A stretch of 64,000 nt of DNA from an uncultured Spirochaetota bacterium (GTDB lineage Bacteria > Spirochaetota > B62-G9 > CAZFGQ01). Shown here in pieces: positions 24,413-56,224 of the stretch. The position numbers and the translations under genes were made by a program. Position 1 is the stretch's first letter. Each line of letters opens with the position of its first letter. The DNA lies in the NCBI GenBank assembly GCA_964518675.1, contig CAZFGQ010000008.1:2365-66364 (forward strand), written 5' to 3'. Below the pieces are notes generated by a model. That model searched no databases and was not told the origin of the DNA. It worked only from the letters and a program-made list of their open reading frames with translations.

Positions 24413-24490
24413 CTCTAATGAATGATATTTACATGAAGGTAAATACCGATGTGTATATTATAAAAAAATATTTATTTTTGTCAATAATTT

Positions 24491-26926
24491 TTAGAAAAAA
24501 TTAAATTCTTTTATCAAATTTTCAAAGGAATCAACCACTAATTCAGCAGGAGGAAGGGAGTTTAAAAAAACCTTCCCATAACTCTTTCTGATAATTCTGC
24601 TATCAAGAATTGTAATTATCCCTCTATCCCTTCTATTTCGTATAAGCCTCCCAATGCCTTGTTTCATTTTTACAACCGCAAGGGGAAGAAGATAATCGAT
24701 AAATGGATTCCCAAACTCAGAAGCGATTTTATCCATTCTTGCTTTAATAACCGGATCTGATGGAACTTTAAAGGGGAGTTTTGAAATGATCACGCTTCGA
24801 AGAGTATGACCGGGTACATCAACACCCTCCCAGAAACTTTCAGTACCCATGAGAACCGAATGGATATCCTCTTTAAAATCTTCCAGAAGGTTATACCTTG
24901 GTCGTTCTCCCTGTACCAGTACCCGGATCCCTCTTTCCTCTATTTTATCCCTTATCAGAGATACAACTCCATTAAGCGTCTTGTAACTTGTAAACAGGAT
25001 AAAAGCTCCGCCGCCTGTTAACATAATAAATCGATATATCATCTCAGCATGCTGTTGGATATACGCCTGATTTTCAGGGTCTGGTGCATCGGTGGGTATA
25101 AATATCTTCATCTGACTCTTATAATCAAATGGAGATGGAAAAATACATTCCATTACCTCATTCTCAATCCCAATCCTCCTTTCTATAAAACTAAAATTAT
25201 TCTCAACTGTTAGTGTTGCACTGGTTAAAATGTAATTTTTAACTCGCCTAAATATTGTTTCTTTAAGCACTTCACTAACATCAACCATTGCCATATAAAA
25301 TACCGATTTGTCCTTATATTCAACCCACCTGACAAATGAACGATCTTCAATAGAAACAAGGCTGGATAGTACAGATGAAATATCCGAAAATCGTGCACAG
25401 TACCCATCAATCTGCCTGATCAAAAACTCGTTTTTATTAATCTTTGACTTTATTTTTTCAAGAAATCCTACCACTCTGTCAAAACCTGCCCTTATACTGA
25501 GAAGTGGTCTGAGAACAACTCCATTCCATTCATCCATATTGAGATTTTCTTCTTTTAATTCCAGCAATTTACCATGAACCACACTCTCACAAAGTTCTGC
25601 CTCTCTCTTTTCTACATGTAAAAGATCCTTTACAAATACATCTATGGTGTCAAAGGTACTCTGGATTTCTCCATACAGAGCCACGGTCATGTCTATTAAT
25701 TCATCTATAGTCTCACGTTCTTCTTCAGGGATCGCTTTTAAGAGATAAAGAAGAAATCCTCCTTCTCTCTTTTTATTAAAATAAAACCTCCGTAGAACTC
25801 TCATCAGATAATATCTGTCAATCTGAGTGGTATAGTAAGAAGTAGCAGAATCCTCTATTTTATGAGCCTCATCCAGCACAAGGTACTGGTATGGTGGAAG
25901 AAGTCCAGTGCCCGGTGGGAGAGATGAATCGGCAATGAGATAGTGGTGGTTTGTAACAATTAGCGTGGATTTAGCGGCTTTTTGTTTCACTCTATTGAAA
26001 AAACATCTACCATAAAACTCACATTTATTACCAAGGCAGGTAATCGTTTCAGAACAAACTGCATCCCACACGGAAGATTTCGGAATAAATCCCAGATCGG
26101 TAAGTGAACCATCATCTGTTTTCAGAGCCCACTCTGCCAGAAGATTAAATTGATCAATATCCTCTTCATCAAAGAAAGTAAAAAGTTCTTTTTTTAACTC
26201 TTCAACTTTTCGCAAACATATATAGTTCTGTCTTCCTTTCATCAGAACATAATCAAAATCTACTTCCAGAAGTTTTTTCACAAGCGGTATATCTTTGCGG
26301 ATCAGCTGTTCCTGAAGATTAATTGTTGCAGTAGAAATCACTACCCTTTTATTATTTTTTAGTGCCCAGGATACTGATGGCAGTAGATACCCCATTGATT
26401 TGCCTATCCCGGTTCCGGCTTCAATAAGAGCTGGTGAGCCTGTATTAAGCGACTCCGAAACCATTCTGATCATCTCCTTCTGTCCCGACCGCTCTTCAAA
26501 TCCATCGAGAAGCTGGCTTAGTTTCCCTCCCTCAGAAACCAATTTAACAAGCCCATCTACATCCACTGCCAAAATGCTTTTCTGAAGAACAGGCTCAACC
26601 GCTACATAAACATTCGAAAGAGAATTATCCACAATATAGAATCCTATTCCCCACTGGGCGAGGGTTGAAGCAATACTTATGTCAGCTCCAGATGGAGAAA
26701 GCTGCCCATCCGGATGATTATGTATAACCACATGGCACTTCATACCCCATTCATAAGGAAAACTCACGCATTCATCATTCCCACGGGCAACCGGTTCAAC
26801 TTTGCATACCATCCCCGATTCATCCAGCCAGCCCAAAAAAAGGACCTCATTCCCATATGCCTGGGTTATCTCCGTTTTCATCATTTCCAGGATTTCATCA
26901 TTGAAAAGTTCTTCAATTGTTTTCAT
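24491..26926 (-). CDS. dinG: DinG/Rad3-family Fe-S DNA helicase with N-terminal RadC-like JAB/MPN domain (unusual fusion)
   Basis: The N-terminal ~115 aa carry the JAMM motif E...HNHPDGQLSPSGAD (H-x-H-x7-S-x2-D), very similar to the RadC HNHPSG signature. Walker A GTGIGKS, DEAH box VLDEAH, the four-Cys Fe-S insertion CLGNKCEFYGRC and C-terminal helicase motifs follow. Confidence 0.8.
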   Translation of the reverse strand: MKTIEELFNDEILEMMKTEITQAYGNEVLFLGWLDESGMVCKVEPVARGNDECVSFPYEWGMKCHVVIHNHPDGQLSPSGADISIASTLAQWGIGFYIVDNSLSNVYVAVEPVLQKSILAVDVDGLVKLVSEGGKLSQLLDGFEERSGQKEMIRMVSESLNTGSPALIEAGTGIGKSMGYLLPSVSWALKNNKRVVISTATINLQEQLIRKDIPLVKKLLEVDFDYVLMKGRQNYICLRKVEELKKELFTFFDEEDIDQFNLLAEWALKTDDGSLTDLGFIPKSSVWDAVCSETITCLGNKCEFYGRCFFNRVKQKAAKSTLIVTNHHYLIADSSLPPGTGLLPPYQYLVLDEAHKIEDSATSYYTTQIDRYYLMRVLRRFYFNKKREGGFLLYLLKAIPEEERETIDELIDMTVALYGEIQSTFDTIDVFVKDLLHVEKREAELCESVVHGKLLELKEENLNMDEWNGVVLRPLLSIRAGFDRVVGFLEKIKSKINKNEFLIRQIDGYCARFSDISSVLSSLVSIEDRSFVRWVEYKDKSVFYMAMVDVSEVLKETIFRRVKNYILTSATLTVENNFSFIERRIGIENEVMECIFPSPFDYKSQMKIFIPTDAPDPENQAYIQQHAEMIYRFIMLTGGGAFILFTSYKTLNGVVSLIRDKIEERGIRVLVQGERPRYNLLEDFKEDIHSVLMGTESFWEGVDVPGHTLRSVIISKLPFKVPSDPVIKARMDKIASEFGNPFIDYLLPLAVVKMKQGIGRLIRNRRDRGIITILDSRIIRKSYGKVFLNSLPPAELVVDSFENLIKEFNFF

Positions 26927-27009: not shown

Positions 27010-27855
27010 TCAAACAAAGCGAAAAAACTCACTCAAAATGGCAAAGAATTTTCCCGCTGCATCCGAGACCACTTCGAGTACTTCTCTATGATTCAGAATA
27101 TGTGGAGAAATCCCAGCTGCCATATTGGAAATAATAGAAACACCAAGCACTTCTATCTTCTGGTACACAGCCGCAATTACTTCGAGCACAGTTGACATCC
27201 CCACAGCATCAGCTCCTGCTTTTGCAAAAAATTTAATTTCTGCCGGTGTTTCATAATTCGGCCCTTTTACACCCACATAAACACCACATTTTACAACACT
27301 TTCATGTCCAAGCCTTTTTGCAGAAGAAATAAACTTTTCTATCAAATGAACTGGATATGCATTTCCCATATCTATAAAAAAATCCTCTGAGTTACCATTT
27401 CTCAGGCTGTACAATTCAACCAGAGGGTTTTCTCCCATAAAGTTAATGTGATCTCTTATCAACATGATGTTACCAGGCTTAAATGATCTGTTAATTCCAC
27501 CCGATGCGTTTGTTAAAACCATAAGCTTCACACCGAGTTTCGCAGCTACCATGATTGGCATCACCACCTCAAGGGGTGAAACACCCTGATAAAGGTGAAA
27601 TCTACCGCAGAAAAACATTACCTTTTTTGAACCAAAACCACCGTATCTTATCTGACTACCCTGGCCCCTAATTACCCTATCTGGTAAAAAAGGAACCTCA
27701 GAATAGTCAATCTGTATTTCATTTCGAAGTGGTGGCAAAACACTCGCAAATCCCGAGCCAAGAACAACCGCATATCTTACATCAGTACCGAGCCTTGTCC
27801 TTATAAATTCAGCTGACTTCTCCACCCTCTCCAGATAATCCATATCTAACCCCAC
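27010..27855 (-). CDS. purine nucleoside phosphorylase (PNP-I / PunA-type; could also act on MTA)
   Basis: GRFHLYQG, TNASGGIN, YETPAE and AVGMSTV motifs match the trimeric PNP family. Confidence 0.85.
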   Translation of the reverse strand: MGLDMDYLERVEKSAEFIRTRLGTDVRYAVVLGSGFASVLPPLRNEIQIDYSEVPFLPDRVIRGQGSQIRYGGFGSKKVMFFCGRFHLYQGVSPLEVVMPIMVAAKLGVKLMVLTNASGGINRSFKPGNIMLIRDHINFMGENPLVELYSLRNGNSEDFFIDMGNAYPVHLIEKFISSAKRLGHESVVKCGVYVGVKGPNYETPAEIKFFAKAGADAVGMSTVLEVIAAVYQKIEVLGVSIISNMAAGISPHILNHREVLEVVSDAAGKFFAILSEFFRFV

Positions 27856-30415: not shown

Positions 30416-31897
30416 TTAACCTTTCATTACACCCATTGGTATCAATTTAGCAACACGTCCTGCAAGATCATTTTCTTCCACAATTTTTACAATTTCGTCA
30501 ACATCTTTATATGCCTCTGGCATCTCTTCTTTCAACGTTTTTTTAGAAACTGATAGTACAAGTATACCTTTCTTTTCAAGTTCACCCGCTATATCTCTGC
30601 TTTTCGCCCTCTTAACGGCCTGCCTTCTACTTAGTGCTCTTCCCGCACCGTGACAGGTGGTTCCAAAGCTCTTTTCCATACTACCGCTTAAACCCCTTAA
30701 GATATACGATGACCTTCCCATGTCACCCGGTATCAGCACTGGTTGACCTATCCCACTATATTCAGGTGGTATGTCTGGACTCCCAGCAGGAAACGAACGT
30801 GTAGCTCCCTTTCTATGAACACAAACCTTTTCCTTTCGGCCATTAATGTCGTGTTCTTCTATACGGGCAATGTTATGGCTAACATCGTAGAGAATTCTCA
30901 TACCCATTTCTGAGGGAGAAAGTTTGAATACATTTCTGAAACTATCCCTGACCATCTGGGTTATTATCTGCCTGTTTGCCCATGCATAATTGGCCGCCCC
31001 TTTCATTGCACTGAGGTATGCTTTACCGAGGGGGTCGCTGATGTAAATCGATACCAGCTGTGGGTCCGGAAGCTCAAACATCCTCTTTTCTCTCAATTTT
31101 CTCAGGTAATCGTCACATATCTGATATCCAAATCCCCTTGAACCTGTATGGAACATAATAATTACCTGATCCTGGAAGATTCCAAATACCTCCGCAGCCC
31201 CAGGGTTAAAGATCTGGCTCACATAGCTTATTTCAAGAAAGTGATTTCCAGCACCAAGGGTGCCCAATTGATCTTTGCCTCTTTCCCTGGCCTCATTTGA
31301 AATATCAGCAAAATCGGCACCGCCCAGGCATCCCTTATTTTCACAATAGATAAGGTCTTCTTCATCTCCATAACCCTTTTCAACTGCCCATTCTGCTCCT
31401 TTTTCCACAACCCTCTTATGCTCCTTCTTGTTCAAATTTATGATCCCGGTTGATCCCACACCAGCAGGAACAGTGCGATAAATCTCCATCAGTACTTTCT
31501 CAAGATGTTTTTTAAACTCTTCTCTTGTAAAGTTTGTAAGTATAGCCCTGACCCCGCAATTTATATCGTATCCAACACCTCCCGGAGAAACAACCCCGTT
31601 ATCAACAGAGGTTGCCGCGACACCACCTATGGGAAAACCATACCCATAATGTATATCGGGCATTCCAATGGCCCACTTTTTTATTCCAGGCAAACACGCG
31701 ACATTCCTCAACTGTACCAGCGATTCCTGTGTTTCGCTGCTGGATGCCATTCTCTCATCTATAAAAACCCTTGCGGGAACCCTCATCTTCTCCTTTTTTG
31801 GTATTTCAAAAAGCGATTCCCCTATTTTTTTTAATTCAATCGTTTCCACTGCCATTTTCCTCACCTCCCCACTTATCGTTCTGACCAAAAAGCTCAA
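30416..31897 (-). CDS. rtcB: RNA 3'-phosphate/2',3'-cyclic phosphate ligase RtcB
   Basis: 493 aa with RtcB metal-binding histidines and Cys; …GAGNHFLEI…, …HNIARIEEH…. Confidence 0.9.
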   Translation of the reverse strand: MSFLVRTISGEVRKMAVETIELKKIGESLFEIPKKEKMRVPARVFIDERMASSSETQESLVQLRNVACLPGIKKWAIGMPDIHYGYGFPIGGVAATSVDNGVVSPGGVGYDINCGVRAILTNFTREEFKKHLEKVLMEIYRTVPAGVGSTGIINLNKKEHKRVVEKGAEWAVEKGYGDEEDLIYCENKGCLGGADFADISNEARERGKDQLGTLGAGNHFLEISYVSQIFNPGAAEVFGIFQDQVIIMFHTGSRGFGYQICDDYLRKLREKRMFELPDPQLVSIYISDPLGKAYLSAMKGAANYAWANRQIITQMVRDSFRNVFKLSPSEMGMRILYDVSHNIARIEEHDINGRKEKVCVHRKGATRSFPAGSPDIPPEYSGIGQPVLIPGDMGRSSYILRGLSGSMEKSFGTTCHGAGRALSRRQAVKRAKSRDIAGELEKKGILVLSVSKKTLKEEMPEAYKDVDEIVKIVEENDLAGRVAKLIPMGVMKG

Positions 31898-31915
31898 ATT
31901 TCAATACCATACACC

Positions 31916-32344
31916 TCAAATATCAAATATTATCGTAACCCTGTAAATATTTTTCTCCTCATTAACCTTTAAATTATGATACGTGGCAGCCTTTATCTCT
32001 CTTTTCAACAATGAGGGTTCGTTAATCATTTCAATCAGAAATCTGTACGTATTTTTCTTCTCTTTGATATATAGCGAAATCGGAACAAGTTTCTTTGTAT
32101 CCACTAAAAATATAATTCTATTTAAAAGATCAAGGATAACATTTTCCCAAGAATCTTTCTTAACAATCATCTTCTCTTTGATTCCCTTTCTTTTCCCAAT
32201 TCTGGCTTTAATCTCTTCGGGAGGCAACTCTGTAAGTATATTAATCAATGCATTTACAGTCTCACTGAAAAGCTCAACAATACTATTGGCCTCAACCTCC
32301 ACACCAATATCGGCTGTGTGGTCGATAAATTTGTAGCTTCCCAT
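31916..32344 (-). CDS. archease (RtcB activator)
   Basis: The N-terminal FIDHTADIGVEV signature is characteristic of archease. It lies immediately upstream of rtcB. Confidence 0.8.
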   Translation of the reverse strand: MGSYKFIDHTADIGVEVEANSIVELFSETVNALINILTELPPEEIKARIGKRKGIKEKMIVKKDSWENVILDLLNRIIFLVDTKKLVPISLYIKEKKNTYRFLIEMINEPSLLKREIKAATYHNLKVNEEKNIYRVTIIFDI

Positions 32345-49225: not shown

Positions 49226-49510
49226 TCAGTTTATCTTCATTTTAGAGATAGCTTTTAACTCCTTCCCTGGTCTAAAATAAGGAACCTTTCTTTTAGGAAC
49301 AATGACAGATTCACCTGTTTTTGGATTTCTTGCCTCTCTTTGTTCCCTCGTTTTCACCTCAAAAGTTCCAAATCCCCTTAACTCTATATGTTCATCGTTC
49401 TTAAGCCCTTCTTTAATAATCTCAAAGAAGGTGTCTATCACTCTTGCAATATCTTTTTTTGTAAGACCAAGCCTTTCATTAATTTCTTCTACGATTTCCG
49501 CCTTTGTCAA
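49226..49510 (-). CDS. hup: HU/IHF-family nucleoid-associated DNA-binding protein
   Basis: 94 aa, …RGFGTFEVKTREQREARNPKTGESVIVPKRKVPYFRPGKELK. Confidence 0.9.
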   Translation of the reverse strand: MTKAEIVEEINERLGLTKKDIARVIDTFFEIIKEGLKNDEHIELRGFGTFEVKTREQREARNPKTGESVIVPKRKVPYFRPGKELKAISKMKIN

Positions 49511-49791
49511 AACGCCCTCCTTTTATAATCCAGATTCAAAATAATCAAATATGTTTTCTTGCAGCCCTCAACAGCCACGAACAACAGGTAAATTAATCAA
49601 TAGTGTTTAATCGCAGGGAGGATTTTATAAACCTTTTCAGTGGCATTTATTAAGAATTATACATAAGAAAAATTATAGTGCAATATGAATTTTTAACAAT
49701 AATTACTTTTTTATAAAAAAAATAAAATCTAACTTATAGTTTTAACCACCCATTAAACCTCAGAGATAAAGGCACTACCGGTAGTTAATTA

Positions 49792-49920
49792 GTACGAGTT
49801 CGAGTTTTCTTTTTGGAGCGAAAATTATTGATTTAAATTTTTCGAAGTTTACCGGCAATGCAACATTTTTAATTCTATTTTGCATTCGGATTTCTATTTT
49901 TCAGGAAACTCGTCATTGTC
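49792..49920 (-). repeat. dispersed intergenic repeat, copy B (reverse orientation, with an internal deletion of about 45 bp)
   Basis: The reverse complement matches the copy A/D core (gaaaaatagaaatccgaatgcaaaatagaattaaaaatgttgcattgccggtaaacttcgaaaaatttaaatcaata). It lacks the AT-rich spacer. It lies between rpsT and hup. Confidence 0.8.
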
Positions 49921-49938
49921 TATAATTATGGGCTATAA

Positions 49939-50223
49939 TTATGATGAGAGGTTCTGGGCAGTTTTAGCTGCTAGTATTCTCTTTGCCATTCTGGACTTTT
50001 TTCTAGCTGCTGTATTCCTTTTTATAACTCCTTTTCCAGCAGCCCTATCTACAACCGATACAAATGAACGAAAAAGCTCATCAATATTTGAAAAATCTTT
50101 TTCTTCGATAGTTTTGAGTATCTTTTTAGCAGAGGTTTTTATTCTTGATTTCCAGGATCGGTTTCGAATCCTTGCCTTTTCGGCCTGTCTTGCTCGCTTT
50201 TCAGCAGATTTGTGCTTTGCCAA
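49939..50223 (-). CDS. rpsT: 30S ribosomal protein S20
   Basis: MAKHKSAEKRARQAEKARIRNRSWKSRIKT... Confidence 0.9.
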   Translation of the reverse strand: MAKHKSAEKRARQAEKARIRNRSWKSRIKTSAKKILKTIEEKDFSNIDELFRSFVSVVDRAAGKGVIKRNTAARKKSRMAKRILAAKTAQNLSS

Positions 50224-50381
50224 TTAATACCCCCAGCAGATTTATTTATGAATTATGAGAAATAAATGGTTAATGTGCAAAGCATAAATTATTAATTTTA
50301 TATTAGGACGTCAAGAGATACGGGGGTAAATATCAAAAATTCACGACTCATTCTTCAATTTTTATTCTTTCATACGTACAA

Positions 50382-55801: not shown

Positions 55802-56224
55802 CTACTCGGTTTTATCTTGATCAGATGGGTTTTCAGGATTTGTTCCCTGCTGTCCCATATTTGGGGGGGCCTGGTAGTTTGGATTCTGGGGTTGTTGAGG
55901 CTGTTGATATGCCTGACCTGGCTGTTGAGGCTGCTGATAAGTTTGATTCGGTTGTTGTGGCTGCTGATACGGACCATAGTACTGACCGGGACCAGGTTGC
56001 TGCATGCCCTGGGGCGGTTGCTGATATCCCTGAGGTTGACTGGTTGTATATGAAATCTTTCCTGTTGTTTCCTCGTCTTCTTCTATCCCCTTTATCGTCT
56101 TCTTAAACTCTTTTATCCCCAATCCCAGGGACCTTGCAATTTTCGGCAGGCGTGCTGCTCCAAAAACGAGCAATCCTACGACTAATATAATAAGTATCTC
56201 CTGTATCCCAATTCCTCCAATCAT
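55802..56224 (-). CDS. tatA: twin-arginine translocase subunit TatA/E with a ~75-aa Q/P/Y-rich low-complexity C-terminal tail
   Basis: TM plus amphipathic helix MIGGIGIQEILIILVVGLLVFGAARLPKIARSLGLGIKEFKK. The tail has repeated YQQPQQP units, and the underlying DNA (55820-56050) is an imperfect ~30-nt tandem repeat. Confidence 0.8.
   Translation of the reverse strand: MIGGIGIQEILIILVVGLLVFGAARLPKIARSLGLGIKEFKKTIKGIEEDEETTGKISYTTSQPQGYQQPPQGMQQPGPGQYYGPYQQPQQPNQTYQQPQQPGQAYQQPQQPQNPNYQAPPNMGQQGTNPENPSDQDKTE

Follow-up and report, generated by a model that had tools for sequence, protein, structure and literature searches.

The stretch of DNA analysed here (the window; 64,000 nucleotides, positions 2,365 to 66,364 of contig CAZFGQ010000008.1 in assembly GCA_964518675.1) belongs to an uncultured Spirochaetota bacterium and carries on its minus strand a gene whose product joins an N-terminal JAB domain of the RadC type to a helicase of the DinG family (Table 1). 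This product is 100% identical to entry P0001, and its 90%-identity cluster includes RKY03295.1, recorded as "hypothetical protein" from a Spirochaetota metagenome-assembled genome. Artefactual joining of separate radC and dinG genes was ruled out, since the same continuous open reading frame (ORF) recurs in hundreds of clusters distributed over several phyla. The search for a second JAB gene in the window gave none, the sole other match to the regular expression being a chance one located within a shadow ORF of 99 amino acids (aa).

The first-pass annotation, made from the letters of the sequence, had placed at the N-terminus of this protein a RadC-type JAB domain with the full JAMM signature, followed by an XPD/DinG-type helicase with an iron-sulphur (Fe-S) cluster, and profile searches against Pfam bear out both assignments: PF04002 (RadC) matches residues 11-92 with 26.1 bits in the whole protein and 30.9 bits in the N-terminus taken alone (gathering score, 22.1 bits), and the helicase families Helicase_C_2 (158 bits), DEAD and, weakly, DEAD_2 are likewise detected. 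The match to PF04002 ends at position 94 of the 121 positions of the model, the C-terminal third of the JAB domain having diverged. Searched against the Protein Data Bank (PDB), the profile built from the N-terminal part of the family finds the crystal structure of RadC (2QLC, E = 1.7e-7) as its sole match. The AlphaFold2 (AF2) model of the N-terminal 150 residues alone, predicted with a mean local confidence (pLDDT) of 91, has chains of the same structure as its five top matches in Foldseek, followed by the JAMM/MPN+ enzymes BubCD, PfJAMM1 (5LDA), 6FNO, CSN5 and Rpn11. Both this model and that of the full-length protein contain the JAB fold with strands 28-34, 40-48, 66-71, 95-100 and 105-110 and flanking helices. 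Classical RadC/YicR (2QLC) has the same JAB subtype with the signature HNHP...PS..D, and JAB is in both proteins joined to a module that binds DNA, but the helix-hairpin-helix domain of classical RadC was not detected by Pfam in the window protein, which gains from the classical RadC models TIGR00608 and NF000642 only 18-25 bits versus 133.85 and 180, respectively, with nothing aligned except the HNHP...PS..D segment. With JAMM/MPN+ isopeptidases (PfJAMM1 5LDA, Rpn11, CSN5, AMSH and those of the BubCD/Cap3 type) the window JAB domain has in common the fold and the catalytic constellation, but only 11-17% of sequence identity.

Conservation of the putative active site was followed at several depths. 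In alignment A1, comprising 76 full-length homologues 38-47% identical to the window protein, the invariant residues of the JAB domain are E27, R48, G49, H69, N70, H71, P72, P78, S79, D82, I98 and Y107, and five of them (E27, H69, H71, S79 and D82) are invariant in alignments A2 and A3 as well. Of the 120 best homologues, 117 have the motif H-x-H-x7-S-x2-D, and the remaining three are truncated at the N-terminus. The combination by which JAMM/MPN+ proteins are recognised, E-x(n)-H-x-H-x7-S-x2-D carried on a JAB fold, is found in the window protein. In an exhaustive HMMER search of 1.84 billion cluster representatives, the N-terminal profile had 958 matches at E <= 1e-3, 531 at E <= 1e-10 and 207 at E <= 1e-30. 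Within the best 150 representatives the catalytic motif is intact without exception (148 exact, two with a one-residue insertion) and is opened by HNHP in every case. Full-length proteins (>= 750 aa) make up 84 of these 150; the other 66 are shorter, and 43 of them run into the helicase, the remaining 23 (<= 215 aa) ending before Walker A. No architecture other than the DinG-type fusion or its fragments was met with this JAB subtype among the best 150 representatives. Invariance of the catalytic residues across homologues only 38-47% identical to the window protein, together with their retention in all 150 best representatives, argues for selection on catalysis. The zinc site (H69, H71 and D82), the general-base glutamate E27 and the oxyanion serine S79 are all present, so that, judging from the sequence, the JAB domain is very probably an active Zn-dependent hydrolase.

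For the helicase half, the best NCBIfam family is YoaA (NF053712) with 566.2 bits, a score below the equivalog cut-off of 680. Lower scores were obtained with DinG PRK08074 (NF005981; 521.5 bits versus a cut-off of 789, aligned over model positions 247-925), with E. coli-type DinG PRK11747 (NF008729; 423.5 bits, below the cut-off of 598) and with the other exonuclease-DinG models TIGR01407 and NF005569 (396.4 versus 547.7 and 198.7 versus 794, respectively), and alignments to the models of the Bacillus-type exonuclease-DinG start at position 242-247 or later, past the exonuclease domain. The AF2 model of the full-length protein has a pLDDT of 90.8 and a predicted TM-score (pTM) of 0.85, the latter suggesting a defined arrangement of the domains in the model, and in Foldseek it is matched best by E. 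coli DinG 6FWR (E = 7.7e-40), with S. aureus DinG, XPD and CasDinG next in rank. The chain ends in this model with a helix formed by residues 801-810, a candidate counterpart of YoaA helix alpha7 in motor domain 2, and the YoaA profile is aligned up to its position 619 of 630. The Q-motif, Walker A and the DEAH box are invariant in A1, as are C237, C302 and C308, and C297 is retained in at least 90% of the sequences. The four-cysteine cluster announced in the first-pass annotation stands as far as the presence of four conserved cysteines is concerned, but the string quoted for it, CLGNKCEFYGRC, holds only three (C297, C302 and C308), the fourth ligand being C237 located 60 residues upstream. 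The spacing of the cysteines matches the pattern C-x(n)-C-x4-C-x5-C, which we take to be that of E. coli DinG. By homology with E. coli DinG and YoaA, the helicase half is expected to bind single-stranded DNA (ssDNA), hydrolyse ATP and translocate in the 5'->3' direction. The earlier description of a metal hydrolase of unspecified substrate joined to a 5'-3' helicase is upheld together with the domain assignment, the polarity being attributed by homology.

Table 1. Features of the RadC-like DinG gene and its immediate surroundings in the window (positions of the window; aa, residues of the protein)
Feature	Position	Strand	Basis or remark
Whole RadC-like DinG gene	24491..26926	-	Single uninterrupted ORF, 811 codons and stop
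N-terminal RadC-type JAB (MPN+) domain, aa 1-112	26591..26926	-	PF04002, profile match to 2QLC, AF2 fold, Foldseek
E27 codon, upstream catalytic Glu of the putative JAMM site	26846..26848	-	Invariant; aligns to Glu of RadC 2QLC
JAMM motif HNHPDGQLSPSGAD (H69, H71, S79, D82), aa 69-82	26681..26722	-	Read from sequence
Linker with two short helices, aa 113-140	26507..26590	-	AF2 helices 123-129 and 135-139, block pLDDT 78-97
DinG/YoaA-like SF2 Fe-S helicase core, aa 141-811	24494..26506	-	NCBIfam scores, Foldseek; Q-motif FEERSGQ at aa 143-149
Walker A GTGIGKS, aa 171-177	26396..26416	-	T172, G173, G175 and K176 invariant
C237 codon, first Fe-S ligand, context NYICLRK	26216..26218	-	Invariant alignment column
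Fe-S segment CLGNKCEFYGRC (C297, C302, C308), aa 297-308	26003..26038	-	C302 and C308 invariant; C297 in at least 90%
Walker B/DEAH box VLDEAH, aa 350-355	25862..25879	-	D352, E353 and H355 invariant
Helicase_C_2 motor domain 2, aa 632-793	24548..25033	-	PF13307, 158.4 bits, E = 2.2e-46
punA-type purine nucleoside phosphorylase, upstream neighbour	27010..27855	-	NF006054, 273.6 bits versus cut-off 218
Sigma-70 consensus TTGACA-16-TATAAT	24457..24484	-	12/12 positions match

The fusion had been taken in the first-pass annotation for an undescribed architecture, and this supposition has to be abandoned: it was described in 2011 and named in 2025. RadC-JAB/DinG fusions with spirochaetes among the listed hosts are reported in a passage of Iyer et al. 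(2011; PMC3239186), where the fused helicases appear as close relatives of those bearing a 3'-5' exonuclease and a possible nuclease role of JAB is inferred from non-homologous displacement of the DnaQ-like exonuclease; the same fusion and the same inference recur in a passage of Iyer et al. (2017; PMC5512222). In its sections on subgroups, the 2025 review of the DinG family (PMC11981726) lists "RadC-like DinG" as one of ten named subgroups and presents its AlphaFold3 model. Compared with A0A0M4DKS9 of D. soudanensis and A0A2C9CFG9 of Ca. Kuenenia, the window protein shows 42% (E = 1e-106) and 41% (E = 1e-92) identity, respectively, both comparisons covering the first 399 residues of the references, that is, the JAB domain, the linker and the first half of the helicase. 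Because of this level of identity and since both alignments start inside the JAB domain, the window protein is almost certainly, as far as sequence comparison can tell, a member of the RadC-like DinG subgroup, with which it shares architecture, length, domain order, the E/H/H/D centre and a DinG-type helicase composed of MD1, MD2, Arch and the four-cysteine Fe-S domain, differing in nothing essential. It thus falls into a named subfamily, as the first-pass annotation had foreseen among the possible objections, but not into one with a known function, and no experimental work on this subgroup was found in the literature to mid-2026. Newly reported here are the intactness of the motif in 150 representatives, the observation of this JAB subtype in the fusion only and the pairings with two recurrent neighbours described below.

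According to the names of their sources, members of the family come from Spirochaetota, Desulfuromonadales/Geobacterales, Gemmatimonadota, Planctomycetota (Brocadiales), Nitrospirota and Acidobacteriota, as well as from KSB1, Verrucomicrobiota, Sumerlaeota, Myxococcota and Dadabacteria. The search seeded with the 399-aa fragment of D. soudanensis listed only proteins shorter than 700 aa, many of them partial, and was used for taxonomic labels only; no cultured and tractable host was identified in it. Some members bear the label "JAB domain-containing protein" given by the NCBI pipeline. One homologue departs from the uniformity of the catalytic centre: the 822-aa protein of Fusobacterium vincentii (L170 6977-9445, NZ_CP084075.1) keeps the JAB domain and has lost all metal ligands, carrying VVIRTTKPKQLYPSDME at the place where others have HNHP...PS..D. 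The loss of metal ligands in a Fusobacterium homologue was noted earlier in a passage of PMC3239186. The gene of this homologue adjoins PgpH-like and YbeY genes.

As classified by Pfam for the ten flanking genes, the order in the window is archease, RtcB, asparaginyl-tRNA synthetase (AsnRS), M23 peptidase, purine nucleoside phosphorylase (PNP) and RadC-like DinG, followed by sugar genes, namely those of FGGY kinase, Zn-dependent dehydrogenase, TIM-barrel isomerase, GFO/IDH/MocA oxidoreductase and ABC permease. From archease through the helicase, this block is kept in a complete 3.5-Mb Spirochaetota genome and on other contigs, where methionyl-tRNA synthetase (MetRS) comes next and MutS is found further on. 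The pair of RtcB RNA ligase and archease (window 30416-32344, minus strand) lies upstream of AsnRS within this block common to other Spirochaetota. The sigma-70 consensus is located 7 nt past the stop codon of the helicase and about 45 nt ahead of the start of the FGGY kinase, and probably marks the start of a separate transcription unit composed of this kinase and the sugar genes. No promoter-like site was found in the 83-bp gap between the PNP and helicase genes. Since the consensus follows the stop codon and the gap is devoid of such a site, the helicase may be the last gene of a unit shared with PNP.

Neighbours were surveyed at 84 fusion loci from metagenome and genome contigs, which collapse to 68 groups at 90% identity, 61 of them having an upstream gene. 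The commonest immediate neighbour is a punA-type PNP, located directly upstream on the same strand in 16 of the 61 dereplicated loci including the window (besides it, L082 7184-8011, L089 7001-7828 and 13 further). Spacing between PNP and the helicase ranges from a 50-bp overlap to a 172-bp gap, with overlapping reading frames at several loci, and the pairing extends over nine Spirochaetota-like groups and seven others, whose nearest named relatives belong to other phyla and are only about 45% identical; the outer genes differ between these groups. Second is a nuclease of the beta-CASP type with a metallo-beta-lactamase fold (313-322 aa), which is absent from the window and stands directly upstream in 8 of the 61 dereplicated loci (L083 7063-8004, L086 7024-7992, L087 6932-7900 and five further), overlapping the helicase gene by 4 bp in two groups. 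It aligns over the full length to TIGR04122 (ligase-associated DNA damage response exonuclease) with 195-202 bits, the cut-off being 325, and no ligase gene was found among the called genes of L083, L086 and L087. Neither PNP nor the beta-CASP nuclease occurs within 6 kb of 79 control loci, which are JAB-less relatives of DinG or archaeal XPD-like genes originating mostly from Bacteriovoracaceae and Nitrosopumilaceae and hence taxonomically narrow; these were drawn from a scan of the genome collection with the window protein, in which one true fusion was returned (L001). Both pairings are missing from the results of term searches of PMC11981726 and from the cited passages of PMC3239186 and PMC5512222.

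Downstream of the helicase, a protein of about 222 aa ending in a SEC-C-like CxCGSG...CCG recurs within one to three genes at 11 loci (including L105, L099, L114, L119, L157, L158, L163 and L164), often preceding genes for a sigma-70-family factor and for a protein like pyruvate phosphate dikinase; the 222-aa protein itself is without a match in NCBIfam. At six loci a conserved reading frame of 95 aa lies between the helicase and the SEC-C-like gene, and it may be spurious or represent a conserved non-coding element.

Taken together, these data make the gene an ordinary chromosomal RadC-like DinG of an uncultured Spirochaetota bacterium, and we are inclined, with a slight preference, to see in its product a helicase of replication or repair that carries its own Zn hydrolase, the latter processing whatever the helicase exposes. 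A role in replication and repair, or in replication rescue, seems probable in itself. The C-terminal 670 residues would constitute a YoaA/DinG-type helicase unwinding forks, nascent 3' ends and other obstacles at stalled sites of replication or repair, and the N-terminal 112 residues would act as a Zn-dependent hydrolase of the RadC-type JAB class. Because JAB is fixed to motor domain 1, we propose that it acts in cis on the substrate exposed by the helicase. The beta-CASP pairing fits a repair role. E. coli YoaA, the best NCBIfam family for the window helicase, is likewise a four-domain Fe-S enzyme, and an overall architecture similar to that of YoaA together with a C-terminal helix is ascribed to RadC-like DinG in the respective section of PMC11981726; the window protein, too, is probably a 5'-3' helicase operating at blocked replication intermediates. 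In the model outlined for YoaA in the same review, the helicase unwinds the 3' nascent strand and nucleases then remove the blocking nucleotide. YoaA has no N-terminal domain and works with HolC (chi); in the window protein the hydrolase is built in rather than recruited. Hosts of RadC-like DinG lack HolC according to a statement in PMC11981726, and in bacteria reported without it the fusion could serve as a replacement for the YoaA-chi arrangement, being functionally equivalent to YoaA plus a nuclease.

As for the chemistry performed by JAB, the likeliest would be that it processes a DNA end or whatever group blocks this end, in parallel with the DnaQ-like exonuclease of ExoDinG and with the separate nucleases that would finish the work after YoaA has unwound a blocked 3' nascent end. 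In ExoDinG and EndoDinG, the place of JAB at the N-terminus is taken by a DnaQ-like exonuclease or an endonuclease (passages of PMC3239186 and PMC11981726). ExoDinG of Bacillus and Staphylococcus (PDB 9II8 and 8ZEF) has a closely related helicase core, and it is the coincidence in position of its hydrolase that underlies the domain-displacement argument set out in PMC3239186. The N-terminal domain of ExoDinG is RNase H-like, unlike the JAB/deaminase-like one of the window protein, and the two folds are unrelated. By this analogy, a nucleic acid rather than a peptide bond may tentatively be suggested as the substrate of JAB (nuclease or end-processing activity). Fusion to a helicase of known type narrows the range of possible substrates for RadC-type JAB domains, and the remaining value of the system consists in providing a handle on what these domains do, either result, nuclease or peptidase, being informative for many bacterial RadC-family genes; the beta-CASP nuclease and PNP as neighbours offer further leads on function. 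It was as a repair gene that radC received its name in the 1980s, and in 2008 this name was reportedly called misleading.

Several circumstances weigh against such an interpretation. To our knowledge, no biochemical activity has been demonstrated for any RadC-type JAB domain, and the polarity and activity assigned to the helicase come solely from homology. The pairing with PNP is unexplained by a repair model. An adjacent nuclease gene in 13% of loci could mean that nuclease activity is provided in trans, JAB doing something else. The Fusobacterium homologue retains the domain without its ligands, which implies a non-catalytic role of JAB in at least some lineages. Finally, mutation of radC in E. 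coli leaves the sensitivity to DNA damage normal (Attaiech 2008, as cited in passages of PMC11981726 and PMC5512222).

The strongest competitor assumes that JAB is a peptidase: the helicase would track along ssDNA 5'->3' up to a bound or crosslinked protein, a trapped topoisomerase or a stalled factor, and JAB would cleave the adduct. We regard this as doubtful. The E/HxH/S/D constellation invariant in the family also characterises JAMM isopeptidases, and every characterised JAMM enzyme known to us is a peptidase or isopeptidase. At loci with an adjoining beta-CASP gene, the nuclease step is possibly supplied separately, and RadC-type JAB occurs in fusions with ArdC-N as well, an ssDNA-binding module usually partnered by a zincin metallopeptidase (passage of PMC3239186). 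Against cleavage of peptide bonds, a passage of PMC5512222 contends that RadC-type JAB lacks the groove holding the tail of a ubiquitin-like protein (Ubl), and no genes for Ubl, E1 or E2 were seen among the neighbours of the examined loci or of the window gene, which argues against a Ubl system. Fusions of a helicase with a peptidase are not mentioned for the DinG family in the sections of PMC11981726 concerned with its architectures, where those with nucleases are recurrent, and searches of the literature found no experimental link between RadC and crosslink repair. As an analogue of the peptidase model, accommodated there in one polypeptide, may serve the eukaryotic pairing of FANCJ, a helicase of the XPD family, with SPRTN. 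That RadC-like DinG is a single-polypeptide enzyme for repair of DNA-protein crosslinks, a bacterial counterpart of FANCJ plus SPRTN, appears unlikely; if true, it would be the first biochemical function for the RadC clade, which is the principal lineage of JAB domains in bacteria. A first JAB-fold nuclease would tell as much, but that proposal dates from 2011.

Returning to a catalytic JAB domain as such, its opposite would be a mainly non-catalytic module, either a platform for DNA or protein binding or an autoregulatory lid, with the whole protein acting simply as a YoaA-like helicase. Complete loss of metal ligands from the preserved domain of F. vincentii agrees with this idea, as does pExoDinG with its dead exonuclease domain, which indicates that inactive N-terminal modules persist in the DinG family (passage of PMC11981726). 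It is nonetheless improbable for the family at large in view of the catalytic residues being invariant at 38-47% identity and kept in 150 out of 150 best representatives.

A still less probable variant, for which we see little chance, makes use of the deaminase-like character of the JAB fold and supposes an action on a nucleotide or nucleoside tied via PNP to purine salvage, for instance in the disposal of damaged or excised nucleotides. It is prompted by PNP standing upstream in 16 of the 61 loci with overlapping frames in several of them, by the spread of this pairing over Spirochaetota-like and other groups with different surrounding genes, and by the absence of PNP from the 79 control loci; most enzymes of the deaminase fold, moreover, act on nucleotides or nucleic acids, as stated in passages of PMC3239186 and PMC5512222. 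On the other hand, proximity by itself may be a product of operon inertia among housekeeping genes, 45 of the 61 loci have no PNP neighbour, such a reaction is without biochemical precedent, and the attachment of JAB to a helicase that translocates speaks for a substrate bound in a polymer.

That the protein is a helicase of a defence system or a mobile element, CasDinG-like or anti-phage, as hinted at in the first-pass annotation, is effectively refuted for this locus: the typeIV_DinG models of PADLOC do match the helicase core (PDLC01439, 453.8 bits), but the match begins at residue 135 and so reflects generic DinG sequence only; the curated Csf4 model TIGR03117 gives 106 bits versus a cut-off of 400; the Fe-S cysteines are retained in the window protein and lost in CasDinG/Csf4 of type IV CRISPR systems, where the Fe-S domain is degenerate (passage of PMC11981726); four neighbour proteins from the window or its relatives have no PADLOC match and the ten flanking genes contain only housekeeping families of Pfam; there is no CRISPR-like array within the window; the N-terminal profile specific to the fusion finds no relatives among the viral contigs of IMG/VR; no phage record covers the JAB part, and the sole "plasmid" record (PLSDB) is a chromosome-sized 2.1-Mb replicon of F. 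vincentii; and the gene keeps its synteny with AsnRS, MetRS and MutS.

Two further observations concern more distant parts of the window. The cumulative GC skew has its minimum at about 49226-50381, where genes flip from the minus strand on the left to the plus strand on the right, and this site coincides with a 1.1-kb gap between lnt (minus strand) and uvrC (plus strand). No dnaA was found beside this gap, and neither Rfam families nor tRNAs were found in the window; the gap could be a region of replication origin or terminus, or merely a divergent promoter region. A 30-bp tandem repeat in 2.7 copies (GGTTGTTGAGGCTGCTGATAAGCCTGACCC) occupies positions 55890-55969, in or near the minus-strand ORF 55802-56224, and is probably a repetitive coding segment.

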